Of a stretch of 64,000 nt of DNA, positions 13,650 to 42,164 are shown piece by piece (position 1 is the first letter of the stretch; each line of letters starts with the position of its first letter). Source of the DNA: an uncultured bacterium (GTDB lineage Bacteria > Patescibacteriota > Minisyncoccia > Phycocordibacterales > Zambryskibacteraceae). The DNA lies in the NCBI GenBank assembly GCA_963789635.1, contig CAWBLF010000003.1:67388-131387 (forward strand), in the 5' to 3' direction. The notes beneath the pieces are model-generated. The model had not been told where the DNA came from. It worked only from the letters and a program-made list of their open reading frames with translations, and made no database searches. The position numbers and the translations under genes were made by a program.

Positions 13650-13800
13650 GATTGCGGGCGGTGAAGGAATCGGTCGGACGTCGATTTCTGCTGAAATCGC
13701 GCACGACCCTGCCTCGCGCCACCGCGCTCCGGCTTTCGATTCCTTTCGCACACGCAATGATGTTCCACTCGGAAGTCTCAGCGGTCTTGCGTGATCATTG
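13650..13800. mobile_element. about 128-bp tRNA-flank module between a 22-bp direct repeat of the tRNA-Trp 3' end (M1 motif)
   Basis: ATTGCGGGCGGTGAAGGAATCG at 13651-13672 and 13797-13818; between them hairpin CGATTTC-tgctg-GAAATCG and a GC-rich second hairpin shared with motif copies at 21962 and 25021. Confidence 0.5.
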
Positions 13801-16524: not shown

Positions 16525-16547
16525 TGGTGCCGGAGAGAGGACTCGAA
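16525..16547. repeat. 23-bp direct repeat of tRNA-Leu(CAA) 3' end (candidate distal att site)
   Basis: TGGTGCCGGAGAGAGGACTCGAA is identical to 22079-22101; an imperfect inverted copy TTCGAGTCCTCTCAC at 16619-16633 lets the interval fold into a long hairpin. Confidence 0.6.
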
Positions 16548-16666
16548 TCTTACAGATTCGGTACACCTTTCTTATCGTACTCCCCGCTAGCGCGTGGTCC
16601 GTGCGATATACTCAAGGTCTTCGAGTCCTCTCACGCAAGTAAAATAATTTACTTGCTTCCGACACG

Positions 16667-17068
16667 CAAAAACCCCTAAAAGGGGTTTTCTTGTGCTGTA
16701 ATTATACACTTTGCGCGAACCTTTTTCGAGCGGAAACTGAACGAATGAATCAGCCCCGCCACCGCCTCGCAGAGCCTCGGCGGACACCAAAGAAAAATGT
16801 TCCTTGCTTTTCGGATTTGCGCGCGACCAATTTCTTCTAAAAAGGAAAGGACATTTTTCTTTGGTGCTCTGCCCTCCAAGTATTCGGGCAGGTGGCGGGA
16901 CTAATGCGGACGAGGTTTTGCGAAAACTTTTTTTTGGGGAAAGGATTTCGCAAAACACTCGGCTAATCTTTTTTGAATTCGGAAGTCGCAAGCGGAGGAG
17001 GAGGGGTTTGGGGAGGAATCCTCCGCTTGCTCCGCTGTTTTCTTTTTGGGGATTTCGGGCGGGCGGTG
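16667..17068 (-). repeat. about 400-bp inverted repeat, copy 1 (non-coding, structured)
   Basis: Reverse complement is about 90-95% identical to 21547-21940; contains a 20-bp perfect internal hairpin (CACCAAAGAAAAATGTCCTT...AAGGAACATTTTTCTTTGGTG) and a CCCC/GGGG terminator-like hairpin. Confidence 0.7.
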
Positions 17069-17079
17069 GACTAGAAATA

Positions 17080-19071
17080 CTAAGGAATAAGTCTTTTGTA
17101 TGTCCTTGGGAAAGGAACGGCGTCTGAAATCATTTCTTTGGCTAGAATTTTAGCAACAAGTCTGTCCAACCCAAGACAAAAACCTCCATGATCTACAGCT
17201 TTGTCTACAATAGAAATATAAAATTCATAATCGCTTATATTGATTCCTGACAATAACATTGATTTTTTAATTTGTGCCCCGTCTGTTTGTCTAATCGCAC
17301 CACTTACAAGCTCCCAGCCATCAACGATAATATCAAAAGTTTCAGTCAATCCACCAGATTTATTTTTTGTATAAAACTTTTTTATCGTATCTGGGTAATC
17401 TTTTATGATAAAAATATCACTAGCATTTCTGCTTTTGATTAACTGACCTAATTTAGCTTCACTCACTAGGCCAAGATCATCGCCCATTGTTACGGGGTTA
17501 CCATTTTCTTGAAGCAGTTTGACTGCTTCACAATATGTCAGCACAGGAATTTTATCAATTTCAGGTAGAACCAAATAGCTTGTAAGACTAAAAGTTTTAA
17601 TCAAATCATCGTTTGTCTTCTTAATTATCTGGCAAGCCAAATAATACAAGTTCTCTAAATTCTTTGGATTTTTCAACTCAATATCTAATCCAATTGATTC
17701 TTGTAGGTGTCGATAGGATTCACTCGTTTCTTTCCTCCAAAAGGGGCCAATTTCATATATCTTCTCCAGACCAGATGCAACAAGAATTTGTTTGTAGATT
17801 TGATTAGATTGTCTCAAAAACGCAGGAGCTCCATTCATCCAATCTACATTTATTGTCCCTCCCTTATCAACTTTTGGTGGGTCGGTAGAAAGGCCTACGA
17901 TATATGGTGTCGTTACCTCTAGAAACTTTTGATCATCCAAATAATTTCTGATAATTTTGTACATTTTACTTCTCTGACTGACCAAATCTAATTTATCCTT
18001 ACCCAGCTTTTTAAAATTACTTTGTCTTTGTTGATTTATATACAGCTTTGCGACATTCCTGTTAATTTGATCAACAATTACACCTAATTTCTTGTCTATA
18101 ATACTTTTTGCTTTACTAATTTCATTTTTTCTTGCCCCAACATTGTTTTCTGCGATTTCTGATAGTTTTTCTATCCCAATAAAGCTACTGACTTTGCCCG
18201 CTAACAATGAGGGCGTTGATAAATCAACAAAGAAAATCCTGTTAAGATCATCAATCTTGTTTAGCAAACCGCCTACAACTCGCTTGGTCTCGGCATTATT
18301 ATCAAGAGCAATAATAATACATGCTATATCTTCCGATGATTTGAAATCTGCAAAAGACGAGTATTGAACACTCGTTTCATTAAGATTTTCTTTTGGAACA
18401 TCAATAATTGTCCTATTGACTATGTGTAGTGGCAAAGCATTTTCTACGTTTAAAATTTTAGCAACAAGCTTTCCGGACTTCCCATAACCAATTAATACAG
18501 ATCTCTTTCCTTCTGGGATATTTTTTACCACAAGCTCACTTGCTATTCTTTCCAAAGAAGTGTTCCCTTCAAAAATACTAGTTTTTAGTTTACATTCATT
18601 GGCAAGCTCATTAAGCCAATCAGCAATGAATACAAAAGGGCTTCCATCTCCGTGTATTCCAGACTTTAATCCTTCAGCCATTTGCGATAAAACCTGAGAA
18701 TCGCCAATTGTAACGCTATGAATTCCGACAGCACATTCGCCTAAAAATTTTATAGCGTTGATCTCATCATAAAATTTTATATCCCTAATCAAACTCATTA
18801 TTCCACCATGTGCATGAGAATCCCAAGTTGATAACATTCTCCCTCTCAGATACTCAAAAGAAAGATCGTCTTGGTAAGAAATTAACAACATAACAGCATT
18901 ACACTTCTTTATCACTGCAATAGAATCAATATTAAGTCCTAGATCATTTTTAAATTGATTTAGAAATTCAGAATCATTTTTTAGATCTGCCAATTGTAAA
19001 TTACTCAGAGCCTTTTCATCAAGTCTTTGATAGTTCAACGCTGCACAAATTATTTTATTAGAGAGTGTCAT
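17080..19071 (-). CDS. fusion protein: glutamyl-tRNA reductase-like (HemA-like) N-domain plus class II aaRS (AspRS/AsnRS-type) catalytic core
   Basis: N-terminus aligns with GluTR (CN(A) active-site Cys region KKCNAVMLL, GDSQVLSQMAEG, Rossmann VLIGYGKSGKLVAKIL...IVNRT, FFVDLSTP); C-terminus has class II motifs 1 to 3 (FLEVTTPYIV; IGPFWRKETSESYRHLQESIGLDIE; HGGFCLGLDRLVAKIL) and no anticodon-binding domain. Confidence 0.55.
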   Translation of the reverse strand: MTLSNKIICAALNYQRLDEKALSNLQLADLKNDSEFLNQFKNDLGLNIDSIAVIKKCNAVMLLISYQDDLSFEYLRGRMLSTWDSHAHGGIMSLIRDIKFYDEINAIKFLGECAVGIHSVTIGDSQVLSQMAEGLKSGIHGDGSPFVFIADWLNELANECKLKTSIFEGNTSLERIASELVVKNIPEGKRSVLIGYGKSGKLVAKILNVENALPLHIVNRTIIDVPKENLNETSVQYSSFADFKSSEDIACIIIALDNNAETKRVVGGLLNKIDDLNRIFFVDLSTPSLLAGKVSSFIGIEKLSEIAENNVGARKNEISKAKSIIDKKLGVIVDQINRNVAKLYINQQRQSNFKKLGKDKLDLVSQRSKMYKIIRNYLDDQKFLEVTTPYIVGLSTDPPKVDKGGTINVDWMNGAPAFLRQSNQIYKQILVASGLEKIYEIGPFWRKETSESYRHLQESIGLDIELKNPKNLENLYYLACQIIKKTNDDLIKTFSLTSYLVLPEIDKIPVLTYCEAVKLLQENGNPVTMGDDLGLVSEAKLGQLIKSRNASDIFIIKDYPDTIKKFYTKNKSGGLTETFDIIVDGWELVSGAIRQTDGAQIKKSMLLSGINISDYEFYISIVDKAVDHGGFCLGLDRLVAKILAKEMISDAVPFPRTYKRLIP

Positions 19072-19817
19072 ATGTTTTTATGAATAACTTCTACAGTTGC
19101 TTGGTGTAGTGGAGTAACCGTAATCTCATTTATTTGAACATGTTCTGAAAGATTTATTACATATTTAATAATATCAGCAATGTCGTCTCCTGATAATGGC
19201 TTAATCCCTTTGTATACATTTTTAGCTTGTTTAGTATCTCCGCCGAAACGAACATTACTAAAGTTTGTTTCAACTAATCCTGGCTGTATATTTGTTACTC
19301 TAATGTCATTTTCTACTACTTCCTTTCTAAGTCCGTCAGAGATAGATTTTACAGCCGCTTTCGTTGCTGCATATACAATACCTTTGGAATAAGATGAGAT
19401 ACCTGCAATAGAACCAATATTGATAATATGTCCGCTGTTTCTTTCTTTCATACCCTTAAGCGCAAGCTTGGAAACCATAAGCAATCCTTTTATGTTGGTA
19501 TCAATCATCTGATCCCAATCCTTTATACAACCGTCTTCTAGTTTTTCTAATCCTAAAGCAAGACCAGCAGAGTTTATTAATACGTCTGGATAAAGATTGA
19601 GAGATTCTAAATTTTCAAACATTTTAGAAATCTGGGACTGGCTAGTAACATCAACAGCGAAAACATGTACGTCCTTATTGTTGCTTAGCTCTGATTTAAT
19701 ATTTTCTAACCCTGAGAGATTTCTGGAGCACAAAATCAATCTATTTCCGTCAGACAGTTTTTTGACACATGCCAATCCAATACCACTGCTTGCTCCTGTA
19801 ATTAGTATCGTTTTCAT
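19068..19817 (-). CDS. short-chain dehydrogenase/reductase (SDR)
   Basis: TGASSGIG cofactor motif, NSAG, catalytic YAATKAA; 4-nt start/stop overlaps with neighbours indicate an operon. Confidence 0.8.
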   Translation of the reverse strand: MKTILITGASSGIGLACVKKLSDGNRLILCSRNLSGLENIKSELSNNKDVHVFAVDVTSQSQISKMFENLESLNLYPDVLINSAGLALGLEKLEDGCIKDWDQMIDTNIKGLLMVSKLALKGMKERNSGHIINIGSIAGISSYSKGIVYAATKAAVKSISDGLRKEVVENDIRVTNIQPGLVETNFSNVRFGGDTKQAKNVYKGIKPLSGDDIADIIKYVINLSEHVQINEITVTPLHQATVEVIHKNI

Positions 19818-21232
19818 AGAGAAGATTTTTTAAAGTTTATTCCCAGCTCAACTTTTTGCTTTTCAGATATTTCAGCTGGCGCATTCATCATTAAATCTTT
19901 TCCATCACCCGTTTTTGCAAAAGCAATGATCTCCCTAATATTTGGCTCCTGTTCAAGGATCATCATAAGTCTGTCGAATCCCCACGCAATGCCACCATGC
20001 GGTGGAGCGCCAAGCTCCAACGCTTTCAACATATGACCAAAATTGTTTTCTATTCTTTCATTGTTATACCCCATAATCTCGAAAGTAGTTCGTAGTGCAG
20101 AAGGTTTGTGATTCCTTATACTTCCGCCGCCGATTTCGAGCCCATTCAAAGTAATATCGTATTGTGTGGTAACAATTTCTCCAATACTTTCTTTCCGCAT
20201 AAATTTCTCAAAATCATTGTCTCTTGGTTTTGAAAAAGGATTATGGGTGAATGTCCACTCGCCAGTGCCATCAACATTATCCTCTCCTGTCTTTTCAAAC
20301 ATAGGGAAATCTACAATCCAAAGAAATGCAAGAAGATTTGTGTCTGTTTTATCCTCTCTTATGTCAGGTTTATCATTCCCATATTTTTTCATTGCTTCTT
20401 TGTAGGACATTCTCGGAAACGGTATTTGTTGTATCTTTTTTTCCGGATAGTTTATTTTTACGATATCAATTAATAGTTTTTCATTTAATTGCATAATGTC
20501 ATCTTCAGTAACAAAGGACATTTCCATATCAAGCTGAGTAAACTCGGGCTGTCTATCCCCGCGAGTATCCTCATCTCTCATACAACGCGCAAACTGAAAA
20601 TATTTTTCAAAACCGCCAACCATCAAAAGTTGCTTATATTGTTGCGGAGATTGAGGAAGTGAATAAAAACTTCCTTTGTAAATTCTGCTTGGCACAACAT
20701 ATGAGCGAGATCCTTCAGGTGTTGGCGCAGACAAAAGAGGCGTTTCTATTTCTAAAAAGTCATCTTTTCCAAGATAATTTCGAATGAAATTTTGAATCTT
20801 AAATCTATTTGCAATATTTTTGTGCATTCTGTCGTTTCGTAAATCCAAATATCTATATTTGAGACGAATAGATTCATTCACCTCCCTAGTATCACCACTA
20901 ATCGGGAACGGCAAAGTTGCCGATTCATTTAAAACATTGATATGCAAAATCTCAAGTTCTATATCTCCATTTAGTATTCCTAATTTTTTATTTTTCTCGG
21001 GTCTTTCGTTTACCTTTCCAGTAACTTCAACTACAAATTCTTCTCGTAGAGTTTTACCGACTTCCATTGCATTACTGTTTGGTAATATCACACCTTGTAC
21101 AATGCCTGATGTATCACGAAAATCCAGAAAGATCATTTTCCCTTGATCACGGCGAACATTAACCCAACCATAAACAATGACGGTTTCCTGTTTTTTTCCT
21201 GACAATTCATTTATGTAAGTTCTTTTTTGCAT
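19814..21232 (-). CDS. aspS: aspartyl-tRNA synthetase, bacterial type lacking the GAD insertion domain
   Basis: OB-fold N-domain, RLKYRYLDLR, motif 1 FLEIETPLL, QSPQQYKQLLMVGG...FARCMRDEDTRGDRQPEFTQLDMEMSF, GGGSIRNH, motif 3 HGGIAWGFDRLMMIL; 472 aa with no approximately 110-aa GAD insert. Confidence 0.8.
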   Translation of the reverse strand: MQKRTYINELSGKKQETVIVYGWVNVRRDQGKMIFLDFRDTSGIVQGVILPNSNAMEVGKTLREEFVVEVTGKVNERPEKNKKLGILNGDIELEILHINVLNESATLPFPISGDTREVNESIRLKYRYLDLRNDRMHKNIANRFKIQNFIRNYLGKDDFLEIETPLLSAPTPEGSRSYVVPSRIYKGSFYSLPQSPQQYKQLLMVGGFEKYFQFARCMRDEDTRGDRQPEFTQLDMEMSFVTEDDIMQLNEKLLIDIVKINYPEKKIQQIPFPRMSYKEAMKKYGNDKPDIREDKTDTNLLAFLWIVDFPMFEKTGEDNVDGTGEWTFTHNPFSKPRDNDFEKFMRKESIGEIVTTQYDITLNGLEIGGGSIRNHKPSALRTTFEIMGYNNERIENNFGHMLKALELGAPPHGGIAWGFDRLMMILEQEPNIREIIAFAKTGDGKDLMMNAPAEISEKQKVELGINFKKSSL

Positions 21233-21237
21233 ATACT

Positions 21238-21447
21238 TTATTTCATTAAAACATCAAGCGAAACGCCAAGCGCGTCTGCAATTTTTTTGACTGTATCAAT
21301 AGTAGGGTTGGGCGTTGAGCCAGCTTCTATTTTAGCAATTGTATGAAAAGCCAAATTTGCCTTTTTTGATAAGACATCTTGAGAAATGCCGAGCTTGTTT
21401 CGGTATTTCTTTATGTTGTCCCCAATTGTGGATTTATCGTTTGACAT
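21238..21447 (-). CDS. XRE-family helix-turn-helix transcriptional regulator
   Basis: 69 aa; HTH_XRE pattern IKKYRNKLGISQDVLSKKANLAFHTIAKIEAG. Confidence 0.75.
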   Translation of the reverse strand: MSNDKSTIGDNIKKYRNKLGISQDVLSKKANLAFHTIAKIEAGSTPNPTIDTVKKIADALGVSLDVLMK

Positions 21448-21546
21448 ATTCGTATAGTTTTACTATTATAGTTAGTATGTATATAAAGTCCTAACTATAT
21501 ACGAGTTAGTATATGAAATTTTCACCATTTAGTCAAACGAAATTGT

Positions 21547-21940
21547 CCGCCCGAAATCGCCAAAAGAAAACAGCGGAGCAAATGGAAAATTCCTCCCCAA
21601 ACCCCTCCTCTTCCATTTGCGACATCCGAATTCAAAAACAAATGAGCCGAAGTTTTGGCGAAATCCTTTCCCCAAAAAATAGTTTTGCCAAAACTTCGTC
21701 CGCATTAGTCCCGCCACCTGCCCGAATACTTGGAGGGCAGAGCACCAAAGAAAAATGTCCTTTCCTTTTTAGAAGAAATTGGTCGCGCGCAAATCTGAAA
21801 AGCAAGGAACATTTTTCTTTGGTGTTCGCCGAGGCTCTGCGAGGCGGTGGCGGGGCTGATTCATTCGTTCAGTTTCCGCTCGAAAAAGGTTCGCGCAAAG
21901 TGTATGATTACAGCACAAGAAAACCCCTTTTAGGGGTTTT
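21547..21940 (+). repeat. about 400-bp inverted repeat, copy 2
   Basis: Near-identical to the reverse complement of 16667-17068; followed directly by a tRNA-Leu 3'-end copy (21944-21961). Confidence 0.7.
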
Positions 21941-21943
21941 CTT

Positions 21944-22078
21944 GTGCCGGAGAGAGGACTCGGTCACACATAAAATTCTGCTGAATTTTTGCGCGACCCC
22001 GCCTCGCACCATCGTGCTCCGGCCTTCTCGTCCTCTCACCAAAATATAAAAACCAGCAGTAAGCTGGTATTTATATTT
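21944..22078. mobile_element. about 127-bp tRNA-flank module (M2 motif) between an 18-bp direct repeat of the tRNA-Leu(CAA) 3' end
   Basis: TGCCGGAGAGAGGACTCG at 21944-21961 and 22081-22098; hairpin AAAATTC-tgctg-GAATTTT; GCGCGACCCCGCCTCGCACCATCGTGCTCCGG; imperfect inverted arm CTCGTCCTCTC; AT-rich spacer. Confidence 0.5.
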
Positions 22079-22162
22079 TGGTGCCGGAGAGAGGACTCGA
22101 ACCTCCACCCCTTGCGAGACACGATTTTGAGTCGTGCGCGTCTGCCATTCCGCCACTCCGGC
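22079..22162 (-). tRNA. tRNA-Leu (anticodon CAA), CCA encoded
   Basis: Reverse complement gives GCCGGAG-TG-GCGGAATGGCAGACGC-G-CACGA-CTCAAAA-TCGTG, variable arm TCTCGCAAGGGGT, GGAGG-TTCGAGT-CCTCT-CTCCGGC-A-CCA. Confidence 0.8.
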
Positions 22163-24830: not shown

Positions 24831-24976
24831 GTGCCCATTATATTGGTAAGGAGAAAAAATAAAAGCACCGAGTCAAAACATCCTATGTCCCAACGCATTG
24901 GGACATCGGATGTCTGATTCGCCATTCCTTACGGGACTGCGAGATTACTTCGGTTTATTTAATTTATCCGGTCGAT

Positions 24977-25400
24977 GATTTGGGCACTTGTTATTACTGC
25001 AACGAACAGGGATTGTTTTTGGTCACACATAAAATTCTGATGAATTTTTGCGCGACCCAGCCTCGCGCCGTCGCGCTCCGGTTCACCAAGACCCGCGCGC
25101 AGGCAGCCCCGTTGCCTGCTTCTATTCGGACTTGTCAATTTTGTGTGGATTATGATTTTTGCAAGATTTATTTGAACAGCGCACGGGGATTGTTTTTAGT
25201 CACAAATATTTTGCTCACCGCCATTCGCAAAATTTTGCGACCCCGACTCGGCATTTTTTCTGCTGAAAAAATATGCCTCCGTCTCACAAAAACAAGTGAG
25301 TACGCAGTCTATACTGCGTACTTTCAAAACTACTTCATTAACTTATGCGGATTGTGATTTGGGCAAGCTTTATTACTGCAACGAACAGGGATTGTTTTTG
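24977..25400. mobile_element. about 334-bp insert downstream of topA bounded by 45-bp direct repeats derived from the topA 3' end; holds motif copies M3 and M5
   Basis: 24977-25021 matches 25356-25400 (about 40/45), which encodes the topA C-terminus (CSNKACPNHNPHKL); interior has GTCACACATAAAATTCTGATGAATTTTTGCGCGACCCAGCCTCGCGCC and a rearranged copy at 25215-25275. Confidence 0.5.
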
Positions 25401-40988: not shown

Positions 40989-42164
40989 CTAGGGGTTGGT
41001 TGAACTTCCTGTTGTAGGCGTGGAGGAAGAATATTGTCCAGATGTTTGCGTGTCAACGCCACCTTGTTGTTGAGTGTCGTTTTGACTTTGTTGTTGTCCA
41101 CCTTGCCAGTTGCCCATTTTTTGGAAGACTGCCTGACATTCGGCTTGGTGACTCACCACACTGCAGTAGGCATCGCAACTTTGTTGTGAATTACAGCCTC
41201 CCGGGCCAGCAATGTTTTGCTCATTACCATTTTGTTGGCCGTTGTTTTGATTGCCATTTTGTTGATTGCCGTTTTGGTTGCCTCCTTGCCAGTTGCCCAT
41301 TTTTTGGAAGACTGCCTGACATTCGGCTTGGTGACTCACCACACTGCAGTAGGCATCGCAACTTTGTTGTGAATTACAGCCACCAGGACCTTGGAAATTG
41401 TTGTGAATCTGGGCATTTTGCGTCATGGCACTATCAAACCCCATTAATTGCGTAAACACGGTGCATTCTGCGCCGTGACTGGGATCACTGCAATAAGATT
41501 CGCATGCTGAAAATTCGCTACAACCGTTTGGTGTTTTTCCTTGTTGGACCAAGGTGTTAAATTTTTGCAAAACCTCCGGACTGACATTGTCCAAACCTCC
41601 TTGTCCGGTAGGATTTATATTTAAACCGATAGCTTTAAATGTTTGCATGCACGCATCCATATGGGCCGGATTTGAACAATATGTTTGACAAGAGGATTTT
41701 GAGGTGCAGTTGCCAGGCATTTGGCCACCACTTTGTAGATATTTCAAAACTTTTTTACCTTCCGTGAGGTCAGGCGTGGTGAAGCCGTTTTTCTGGGCGA
41801 AATTCAGACAAGTCGAAAGGTTGCTGATGGTAGAGCAATAAGCATCACAAGCGTCGGCAGAATCGCATCCACCCGGGCCGTTGCCGTGTGTCAAGAGCGC
41901 AGCATACTGGCTCGCTGTCGACGCTTCATCGGCTGTTATCATGCCGTGTTCCTTGGCGAAGTTTGCACAGGCAGGAATATTGGCGGCGATATCACAGTAA
42001 GCATGGCACGAAGTCTGATCGGTGCAGTTGCCGAGCGCGGCAACAGGGAAGCTAATGCCGTTTTGATTCCCTGAATTTTGCGCCAATACCCTTTGGGAAG
42101 TAAAAAAACTACTTAAAATCATCGCACAAATAAGCAAAACTTTTATTGTTTTAGTGTTTTTCAT
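40989..42164 (-). CDS. secreted cysteine-rich tandem-repeat protein
   Basis: Signal peptide; at least 6 repeats of an about 45-aa C...C..YC......C module; two near-identical DNA repeat units about 135 nt long around 41100-41400. Confidence 0.5.
   Translation of the reverse strand: MKNTKTIKVLLICAMILSSFFTSQRVLAQNSGNQNGISFPVAALGNCTDQTSCHAYCDIAANIPACANFAKEHGMITADEASTASQYAALLTHGNGPGGCDSADACDAYCSTISNLSTCLNFAQKNGFTTPDLTEGKKVLKYLQSGGQMPGNCTSKSSCQTYCSNPAHMDACMQTFKAIGLNINPTGQGGLDNVSPEVLQKFNTLVQQGKTPNGCSEFSACESYCSDPSHGAECTVFTQLMGFDSAMTQNAQIHNNFQGPGGCNSQQSCDAYCSVVSHQAECQAVFQKMGNWQGGNQNGNQQNGNQNNGQQNGNEQNIAGPGGCNSQQSCDAYCSVVSHQAECQAVFQKMGNWQGGQQQSQNDTQQQGGVDTQTSGQYSSSTPTTGSSTNP

Follow-up and report, generated by a model that had tools for sequence, protein, structure and literature searches.

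Why would a bacterium fuse a relative of glutamyl-tRNA reductase (GluTR) to the core of an aminoacyl-tRNA synthetase (aaRS), and keep the fusion in one operon with a complete aspartyl-tRNA synthetase (AspRS, encoded by aspS)? This question is raised by four genes in a 64,000-nucleotide stretch of DNA from an uncultured member of the Patescibacteriota (contig CAWBLF010000003.1, positions 67,388 to 131,387; the whole stretch is hereafter called the window). To our knowledge, GluTR is the sole enzyme that reduces an aminoacyl-tRNA, and aminoacyl-tRNAs are its only known substrate class. We report that the fusion protein has an N-terminal half that is specifically GluTR-like by sequence and predicted fold, that its C-terminal half is predicted to be an active aspartate-adenylating site, and that, to judge from sequence comparison, it represents a large, diverse and uncharacterised enzyme family. 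The most likely function of the operon, though we hold it somewhat short of probable, is a tRNA-dependent reduction of the α-carboxyl group of aspartate to an amino-aldehyde and then to an amino-alcohol. Such a reaction would probably be new. The genes and the two halves of the fusion are the following.

21238-21447, minus strand: XRE-family helix-turn-helix regulator, 69 residues (HTH_3, E 1e-15), the first gene of the cassette
19814-21232, minus strand: AspRS, 472 residues, bacterial type without the GAD insertion (open reading frame and profiles)
19068-19817, minus strand: short-chain dehydrogenase/reductase (SDR), 249 residues, YdfG/YMR226C type
17080-19071, minus strand: fusion protein, 663 residues (open reading frame at these coordinates)
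18016-19071, minus strand: N-terminal half of the fusion, residues 1-352, with a GluTR-like catalytic domain, an NADPH-binding Rossmann domain and a long spinal helix
17080-18015, minus strand: C-terminal half of the fusion, residues 353-663 plus the stop codon, an archaeal/eukaryal-type AspRS class II core
18901-18903, minus strand: codon of the putative catalytic Cys57, within the invariant K56-C57-N58 motif

The four genes form a single, tightly packed minus-strand operon. Only 5 nt separate the XRE and AspRS genes, the AspRS and SDR genes overlap by 4 nt, and the stop codon of the SDR gene overlaps the start codon of the fusion gene in the sequence ATGA. The G+C content of the cassette is 0.351, against 0.432 in the remainder of the window. 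An earlier note on this DNA had described the fusion as a GluTR-like half with catalytic cysteine and Rossmann domain joined to an anticodon-less AspRS-type core, an anatomy that profiles and fold comparison bear out; its account of the operon (coupling of the SDR through ATGA, absence of GAD from the AspRS, presence of an XRE gene, low G+C content) holds as well.

What identifies the N-terminal half? The NCBIfam hemA model TIGR01035 aligns residues 7-352 with model positions 1-349 of 416 (E 1.4e-18), at a score of 67 bits that lies below the curated cut-off of 209.6. Pfam returns GlutR_N at E 2.7e-5 (24.4 bits, slightly under the 27-bit cut-off) and Shikimate_DH at E 5.8e-6. When the N-terminal half was compared with all PDB sequences, GluTR was the only match (4n7r, E 1.3e-9; 1gpj, E 9.8e-9), and the alignment lays the query segment AVIKKCNAVML on AVLSTCNRMEIYV, so that Cys57 stands over the GluTR catalytic cysteine. 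An AlphaFold model of residues 1-352 (pLDDT 93.4, pTM 0.83) gave the same answer in Foldseek: the best seven matches are all GluTR (E 5e-16 to 9e-12; TMq 0.69 for 1gpj), followed by the isolated nucleotide-binding domain of a GluTR (3oj0, E 7e-5) and by generic Rossmann folds at about 1e-4 or weaker. An unrelated Rossmann family without the cysteine, which the earlier note had named as an outcome that would refute its reading, was not found; the matches are GluTR-specific and Cys57 is aligned.

The catalytic machinery is conserved and the substrate pocket is rebuilt. Across 93 full-length homologues, the invariant or near-invariant positions comprise K56, C57, N58, S119, G123, D124, Q126, Q130, S172, E174 and R175, together with the NADPH-site motif G195xG197xxG200 and N219-R-T; C57 is present in 93 of 93. 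The arginine of the GluTR motif TCNR holds the side-chain carboxylate of glutamate, as in the Methanopyrus kandleri and Escherichia coli enzymes. In the fusion TCNR has become KCNA, with A59 in 88 of the 93 homologues and arginine in none. Two further changes affect the pocket: the glutamate of the GE.Q segment is aspartate (D124), and a Ser-Ser pair is replaced by E174-R175. We take these positions to be substrate-binding in the fusion as well, combining the residue roles known from GluTR with the PDB alignment. Because the arginine is lost, D124 substituted and E174-R175 gained in every member, the remodelling fits a changed amino-acid substrate. The GluTR features reported in the earlier note therefore stand in part: the active-site cysteine region and the segment likened to GEPQILGQVK are there, with glutamate changed to aspartate in the latter, and the glutamate-binding arginine of TCNR is absent.

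This separation from GluTR runs through the whole set of relatives. A phmmer search with the N-terminal half alone, against 1.84 billion representative proteins, divided the matches cleanly: proteins of 400-445 residues carry TCNR and are true GluTRs, whereas all fusions, and proteins of 330-400 residues that consist of the N-terminal half only, carry KCN[A/S/G/C]. The fusion also lacks a match to the GluTR C-terminal dimerisation domain (GlutR_dimer, PF00745); in its place, residues 353-663 are tRNA-synt_2.

The C-terminal half is closest to AspRS. Pfam tRNA-synt_2 matches it at E 1e-47, and the best curated model is that of archaeal-type AspRS (PRK05159, E 2e-63, 215 bits, below the cut-off of 353). 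The PRK05159 alignment spans model positions 125-438 and there is no match to tRNA_anti-codon; because the alignment begins only at position 125, the anticodon-binding OB-fold is missing. The AsnA model PRK06462 scores far under AspRS (95 bits against a cut-off of 368, E 3.5e-27). The PDB sequence match is AspRS 1n9w (E 5e-37), and Foldseek returns AspRS and AsnRS at E of about 1e-25. In a model of the full-length fusion (pLDDT 89.8, pTM 0.68), a spinal helix of about 33 residues parts the two halves.

We compared the active site of this half by alignment with the neighbouring genuine AspRS and with an archaeal-type AspRS; the roles of the residues that bind aspartate, ATP and Mg2+ are those described for the yeast and E. 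coli enzymes. The aspartate-site set (S422, Q424 and K427 in QSNQxYKQ, D463 and R594) and the ATP/Mg2+ set (R446, E448, R454, H455, E458, D580, E587, H628 and R637) are invariant or nearly so: only two of the residues checked are near-invariant, and the counts run from 91 to 93 of 93. This conservation argues for a catalytically active aspartate-adenylating site and not a mere scaffold. As a second refuting outcome, the earlier note had named a C-terminal domain of the AsnA type together with the same fusion already characterised elsewhere. The scores of 215 bits for AspRS and 95 for AsnA speak against the first, and no characterised fusion was found: our literature search gave no account of a GluTR-aaRS fusion, nor of an aminoacyl-tRNA reductase other than GluTR, and nothing relevant on aaRS paralogues in the candidate phyla radiation.

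How widespread is the fusion? A word-indexed search returned relatives in 109 clusters, some full-length and some fragmentary, with identity as low as 28%. An assembly or fusion artefact was considered and rejected, as the same architecture occurs in more than 100 independent clusters. The named sources are all Patescibacteria (Kaiserbacteria, Falkowbacteria, Parcubacteria, Azambacteria and Moranbacteria), with a few matches from bins labelled as other taxa. In public databases the proteins go by such names as 'hypothetical protein', 'amino acid--tRNA ligase-related protein', 'Aspartate-tRNA ligase' and 'glutamyl-tRNA reductase'.

More distant fusions, 23-29% identical in the N-terminal half, keep the same Pfam architecture and fall into subfamilies that can be told by their motifs. 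One combines QKCN[C/S]VE with QS[A/P/V]QLHKQ. Another combines KCNGT with QS[P/S]Q..LQ (proteins P0241 and P0254; locus L052) and has lost the lysine that contacts the aspartate side chain, which suggests a different amino-acid substrate for the same architecture. Taken together, the subfamilies with altered amino-acid-binding residues suggest a wider set of putative aminoacyl reductases. The two halves also occur as neighbouring separate genes (L021/L022). In addition, two free-standing, anticodon-less, archaeal-type AspRS cores lie near fusion genes; they carry QS[V/A]QLHKQ and a motif 2 with ES/AW, and resemble the C-terminal domains of subfamily II, to which locus L051 below belongs.

L001:2527-3501, minus strand: free-standing core of 324 residues (PRK05159, 287 bits)
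L004:9970-11034, plus strand: free-standing core of 354 residues (PRK05159, 274 bits)

The gene neighbourhoods of the family link it to aspS and to aldehyde reductases. The arrangements, with identity to the window's fusion protein, are these.

Clade A, at least 46% identity, 11 distinct loci including the window: aspS (GAD-less), SDR gene, fusion gene, with XRE upstream in four
Clade B, 42-44% identity, seven loci: fusion gene alone, with a conserved convergent gene for a metallo-beta-lactamase-fold protein
L004, 38% identity, one locus: full-length, GAD-containing aspS, divergent, with an extra truncated core downstream
Clade C, 31-32% identity, two loci: fusion gene then aspS, without an SDR gene
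L051 (subfamily II), 24% identity in the N-terminal half, one locus: aspS, gene for an iron-type alcohol dehydrogenase (Fe-ADH), fusion gene

In 15 of the loci with enough flanking sequence to judge, a complete aspS is found no more than about 2.5 kb from the fusion gene, in four arrangements. The slot between aspS and the fusion gene holds a reductase: the SDR in 11 loci and the non-homologous Fe-ADH in L051. The SDR of the window matches adh_short (E 9e-49) and the YdfG model PRK10538 (E 1e-61; 208 bits against a cut-off of 411), scores that mark it as a subfamily related to YdfG and not an orthologue. Its closest relatives in the PDB are yeast YMR226C, E. coli YdfG, the sulfoacetaldehyde reductase IsfD and clavaldehyde dehydrogenase, and it is probably an aldehyde-to-primary-alcohol reductase. 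The Fe-ADH best matches the models for sulfoacetaldehyde reductase, lactaldehyde reductase and 4-hydroxybutyrate dehydrogenase. For both enzymes, the closest relatives of characterised function reduce small polar aldehydes to primary alcohols. The presence of two unrelated small-aldehyde reductase folds in the same slot is good evidence for an aldehyde as the compound released by the fusion, and for its subsequent reduction to an alcohol. With these SDR relatives, and with the Fe-ADH of L051, the aldehyde-to-amino-alcohol route sketched in the earlier note gains real support.

Other genes recur beside the fusion. An Amidohydro_2 gene (PF04909) lies directly 3' of it in L001/L009 and L006, and nearby in L010 and L026 (L001:10011-12895; L006:11998-13032). 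In L001 the Amidohydro_2 gene is followed, in a tight cluster, by a P-loop AAA_18 kinase-like gene and a NUDIX hydrolase gene, so the pathway may extend further there. Six clade B loci (L011, L012, L013, L016, L023 and L024) share a convergent gene, 50-93 bp past the fusion gene, for the conserved 267-residue metallo-beta-lactamase-fold protein (Lactamase_B_2; for example L013:12066-12869, minus strand); the precomputed annotation of the L024 copy also lists Anti-Pycsar_Apyc1. Two of these loci also have a tRNA-Glu gene some 150-230 bp 5' of the stand-alone fusion gene (L011:9682-9754 and L013:9670-9742); this may be mere synteny, though it is worth noting beside a GluTR-like enzyme.

Is the AspRS of the operon itself unusual? 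It scores 604 bits with the bacterial AspRS model PRK00476, over the equivalog cut-off of 443, and has tRNA_anti-codon (OB-fold) and tRNA-synt_2 domains with canonical motifs. PRK00476 aligns in two stretches that bypass GAD, and PF02938 gives no match. More than 120 homologous AspRS clusters are at least 72% identical to it; the best 120 are all 464-488 residues long and likewise lack GAD. Four of four sampled homologues (about 75% identity) sit in unrelated contexts without the fusion, one of them among gatB and gatA. Since these context-free enzymes are nearer to the window's AspRS (about 75%) than are many fusion-linked ones (59-66%), the operon's aspS is not a specialised paralogue, a candidate that we rejected on this ground. 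The GAD-less AspRS is, by these comparisons, the ordinary Patescibacteria form and not a specially captured enzyme. We found no second aspS within the 64-kb window. Elsewhere, a single Moraniibacteriota contig encodes, inside 10 kb (L025:9866-19425), the fusion together with a bacterial AspRS that lacks GAD and an archaeal-type, non-discriminating AspRS that is complete (441 residues, 509 bits).

What, then, might the operon do? The comparisons establish domain identities, conserved residues, gene linkage and mobility; from these the substrate, the dependence on tRNA, the carboxyl group that is reduced, the product and the task of the C-terminal half are inferred. GluTR acts by attack of its cysteine on the aminoacyl-tRNA ester, which yields a thioester that is reduced by NADPH (PMC6399207). 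By the same chemistry, the normal AspRS would charge tRNA to give Asp-tRNA(Asp), Cys57 of the GluTR-like half would attack the aminoacyl ester to form a thioester, and NADPH would reduce the thioester to L-aspartate 1-semialdehyde (3-amino-4-oxobutanoate). The co-translated SDR, or the Fe-ADH in L051, would reduce this unstable amino-aldehyde to 3-amino-4-hydroxybutanoate. Enzymes of the YdfG type interconvert a group of the CH(NH2)-CH2OH/CHO type in serine. The AspRS-like half would stand in for the GluTR dimerisation domain and probably supplies the dimer interface, because class II cores dimerise through motif 1. It most likely activates aspartate as well, because its aspartate/ATP/Mg2+ site is fully conserved; a possible role is to recharge tRNA in cis, with the tRNA as a recycled carrier.

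Several observations weigh against this proposal. Its weakest point is the second, strictly conserved aspartate/ATP site, which goes unexplained if the adjacent AspRS supplies Asp-tRNA. The C-terminal half has no anticodon-binding domain, so that tRNA charging of its own is uncertain, and the phenylalanine of motif 2 that stacks on adenine is serine in 79 and threonine in 11 of the 93 homologues. In the seven clade B loci neither aspS nor a reductase gene is near the fusion, and across the loci no dedicated tRNA gene is conserved beside the operon. Finally, we know of no role for the predicted product, 3-amino-4-hydroxybutanoate.

The genomic setting in the window adds a question of selective context, as the operon is bracketed by inverted repeats next to a tRNA gene.

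16658-17046: left arm of the inverted repeat (placed by repeat pairing, by the edge of homology with locus L044, and by a shared 22-mer)
21508-21536, minus strand: promoter-like site between the right arm and the XRE gene, TTGACT, 17-nt spacer, TATACT (10/12 in a consensus scan; a pattern match only)
21562-21951: right arm of the inverted repeat (same three lines of evidence)
22079-22162, minus strand: tRNA-Leu(CAA), adjoining the right arm (ARAGORN and Rfam)

The arms are about 390 nt long and 90-94% complementary. A partial copy of the tRNA-Leu 3' end lies beyond the left arm at 16525-16550 (compare 22065-22104; direct repeat family D1), with another at 21928-21967. The tRNA-Leu gene may be the integration site, possibly repeated or rearranged. 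Locus L044 has the same cassette, with 86.5% nucleotide identity over 4920 nt, and at the outer edges of the repeats the homology breaks off. The two loci have unrelated flanks, and the IF-2 proteins of the two hosts are only 38% identical. In L044 the flanks have a G+C content of 0.50 and the cassette 0.356, and in about 12 of 20 loci the G+C content of the fusion gene is under that of its flanks. We conclude from these comparisons that the operon in the window is the cargo of a horizontally mobile cassette, bounded by the inverted repeats and led by the XRE gene, a feature absent from the earlier note.

Moreover, the same repeats carry other genes. A 22-mer common to all four repeat arms (window and L044) was found in more than 120 metagenome contigs, the majority of them from groundwater. 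Frequently it is there twice, once on each strand, with 2.4-5.4 kb between the two copies. Of the 80 loci fetched (L053-L132), 44 encode an XRE homologue some 130-200 bp inside the repeat. The fusion is in none of the other cassettes that bear the 22-mer. Their cargo includes type II restriction-modification systems (Tsp45I, MvaI/BcnI, TaqI and MutH-like), other defence genes (CBASS with SMODS and Cap15, a Pycsar effector, and OLD/AAA_15 ATPase-nucleases), a P-type ATPase with transporters, an enzyme like pyruvate phosphate dikinase, and single giant open reading frames without a Pfam match. Of nine other cargo types examined, five are restriction-modification systems, some of them accompanied by CBASS, Pycsar or OLD-like components. 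One cargo (L061:4007-9043, inverted in L121) encodes SAM_HAT, a P-loop protein, a glycosyltransferase, a peptidase S51 and a 463-residue class I protein like GluRS or GlnRS; it is possibly a nucleoside-type biosynthetic module, and the second cargo with an aaRS-like gene.

Since XRE homologues sit inside the same repeat in unrelated cassettes, the XRE gene belongs to this carrier and not to the pathway. The inverted repeats surround the operon only in the window, L044 and L021; they are absent in six other loci, so the carrier is not part of the pathway either. By this distribution, XRE and repeats constitute a general mobile chassis for accessory genes, enriched in defence functions, of which the aspS-SDR-fusion operon is one cargo. 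As most family members lie outside it, the chassis bears on mobility and selective context, not on mechanism. We saw no recombinase inside the chassis cassettes, Rfam matched nothing in the inverted repeats, whether at the gathering threshold or with E relaxed to <= 1, and inspection of the outer repeat ends by eye showed no target-site duplication. Three further repeat families occur in the window: a 61-nt intergenic family near tRNA genes (13672-13732, 21962-22022 and 25021-25081; 75-92% identity), a 117-nt direct repeat in two copies 183 nt apart (41091-41207 and 41274-41390; 94% identity), and a 63-nt family in three copies within 24959-25400.

Could the same genes be read differently? An adenylating core fused to a cysteine/NADPH reductase, with a fully conserved aspartate/ATP/Mg2+ site and no anticodon domain, could act as a tRNA-independent carboxylate reductase that needs no carrier: aspartyl-adenylate would be brought to Cys57 by a large domain movement, as in ubiquitin E1 and the ANL/CAR enzymes, and NADPH would then give the same amino-aldehyde. 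The fusion that stands alone in clade B, and the halves that exist as adjoining separate genes in L021, agree with such an enzyme. We nevertheless judge it unlikely, as it leaves the recurrent aspS linkage (four arrangements, across subfamilies) without a role, the pocket in solved GluTRs is made for 3'-aminoacyl-adenosine, the spinal helix of about 33 residues stands between the halves in the model, and Pfam finds no phosphopantetheine carrier domain. That linkage is equally unexplained if the core activates the β-carboxyl group in the manner of AsnA and archaeal AS-AR, with the GluTR-like domain as an aspartate-semialdehyde dehydrogenase and the SDR or Fe-ADH as a homoserine dehydrogenase. 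Such an alternative aspartate 4-semialdehyde/homoserine route is physiologically attractive, for the use of its product would be obvious; anticodon-less, AspRS-derived activators of the β-carboxyl are known in AsnA and AS-AR, the C-terminal domain has its weaker AsnA match (E 3.5e-27), and the Fe-ADH of L051 resembles 4-hydroxybutyrate dehydrogenase too. We regard it as distinctly unlikely, given that the domain scores 215 bits with AspRS and 95 with AsnA, that it keeps the AspRS residues for the side-chain carboxylate (K427 and R594) and for the amino group (S422, Q424 and D463), and that no thrB, thrC or dap gene was seen in the annotated flanks.

The chassis invites another reading, in which the operon is a conflict module for chemical defence, antibiotic production or resistance, and Asp-tRNA is diverted, by reduction to an aldehyde or alcohol, into an aspartate analogue directed against AspRS or translation. 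The C-terminal domain might, for instance, adenylate aspartol to a non-hydrolysable mimic of Asp-AMP, and phage-infected cells, hosts or competitors would then have their AspRS blocked, with the cassette aspS giving supply or immunity. The operon does ride the inverted-repeat/XRE chassis, where five of the nine other cargo types are restriction-modification systems (with or without CBASS, Pycsar or OLD-like components); the cassette has moved between hosts with 38%-identical IF-2, in about 12 of 20 loci the flanks exceed the fusion gene in G+C content, and a copy of an aaRS gene is a frequent component of clusters that make aaRS inhibitors. Set against this are most family members, which lie outside the chassis; the chassis carries transporters and metabolic genes too, and the AspRS is canonical, with context-free relatives (75%) nearer than many fusion-linked ones (59-66%). 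In PADLOC, the fusion, SDR and AspRS match no defence-system model and the XRE protein gives only generic helix-turn-helix matches. All told, we find a conflict module very improbable. A degenerate or moonlighting GluTR for tetrapyrrole synthesis, or an inactive relic with the aaRS core as scaffold, is hardly credible: overall homology to GluTR and public names such as 'glutamyl-tRNA reductase' point that way, yet every member has lost the glutamate-binding arginine, strong purifying selection acts on both active sites, no locus contains hemL or another heme gene, and Patescibacteria are not known to synthesise heme.

We therefore return to tRNA-dependent reduction of aspartate and to what it would mean. 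If it is correct, a second aminoacyl-tRNA reductase chemistry would join that of GluTR, extending tRNA-dependent small-molecule chemistry, and the fusions would form a second GluTR-like clade, with a rebuilt pocket and a covalently joined aaRS core, that is linked in the genome to aspS and to aldehyde reductase genes. A family found in many genomes of the Patescibacteria, which have very few biosynthetic pathways, would moreover gain its first assigned function. The family is widespread, strongly conserved, experimentally tractable and so far entirely unannotated. The inverted-repeat/XRE chassis, for its part, looks to be a widespread and apparently undescribed carrier of defence and accessory genes in groundwater bacteria of the candidate phyla radiation.

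How does the operon compare with systems already known? GluTR (HemA; 1GPJ, 4N7R) shares with the fusion the catalytic domain, the NADPH-binding Rossmann domain and the spinal helix, the nucleophilic cysteine in xCNx, the segment with S119, G123, Q126 and Q130, and GxGxxG...NRT. The fusion differs in having KCNA for TCNR, with an arginine lost and a lysine gained, in D124 and the new invariant E174-R175, and in a class II aaRS core instead of PF00745; it scores under the curated GluTR cut-offs and has no heme context. Archaeal/eukaryal-type AspRSs (Thermococcus kodakarensis 1B8A/3NEL and Thermus thermophilus AspRS2, 1N9W) resemble the C-terminal half in motifs 1-3, in the full aspartate/ATP/Mg2+ set and, presumably, in dimerisation through motif 1. 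Unlike them, the C-terminal half has no N-terminal OB-fold, QSPQ has become QSNQ, and the phenylalanine of motif 2 has become serine or threonine.

Truncated cores put to non-translational use are also known from anticodon-less aaRS paralogues, namely AsnA and archaeal AS-AR, EpmA (PoxA/GenX) and the amino acid:carrier-protein ligases. By score the core of the fusion lies nearer AspRS than AsnA, and it is joined to a reductase, as none of these paralogues is. In overall logic, the proposed route recalls the carboxylic acid reductases (CAR), the terminal reductase modules of nonribosomal peptide synthetases and the α-aminoadipate reductase Lys2, in which ATP activation is followed by a thioester and by NADPH reduction to an aldehyde, often with a separate alcohol dehydrogenase. 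Those systems have ANL adenylation domains, a phosphopantetheine carrier and SDR-type R domains, whereas Pfam finds none of these in the fusion; where they use phosphopantetheine, the carrier here would be tRNA, or there would be none. The seryl-tRNA synthetase VlmL of valanimycin biosynthesis is an aaRS dedicated to the pathway of a tRNA-dependent natural-product cluster. Clusters of the VlmL type, like this operon, place a complete aaRS gene beside the enzyme that diverts, or in our case would divert, its aminoacyl-tRNA; in the operon, by contrast, the AspRS is of the ordinary lineage type and the diverting enzyme would be a reductase, not a transferase.

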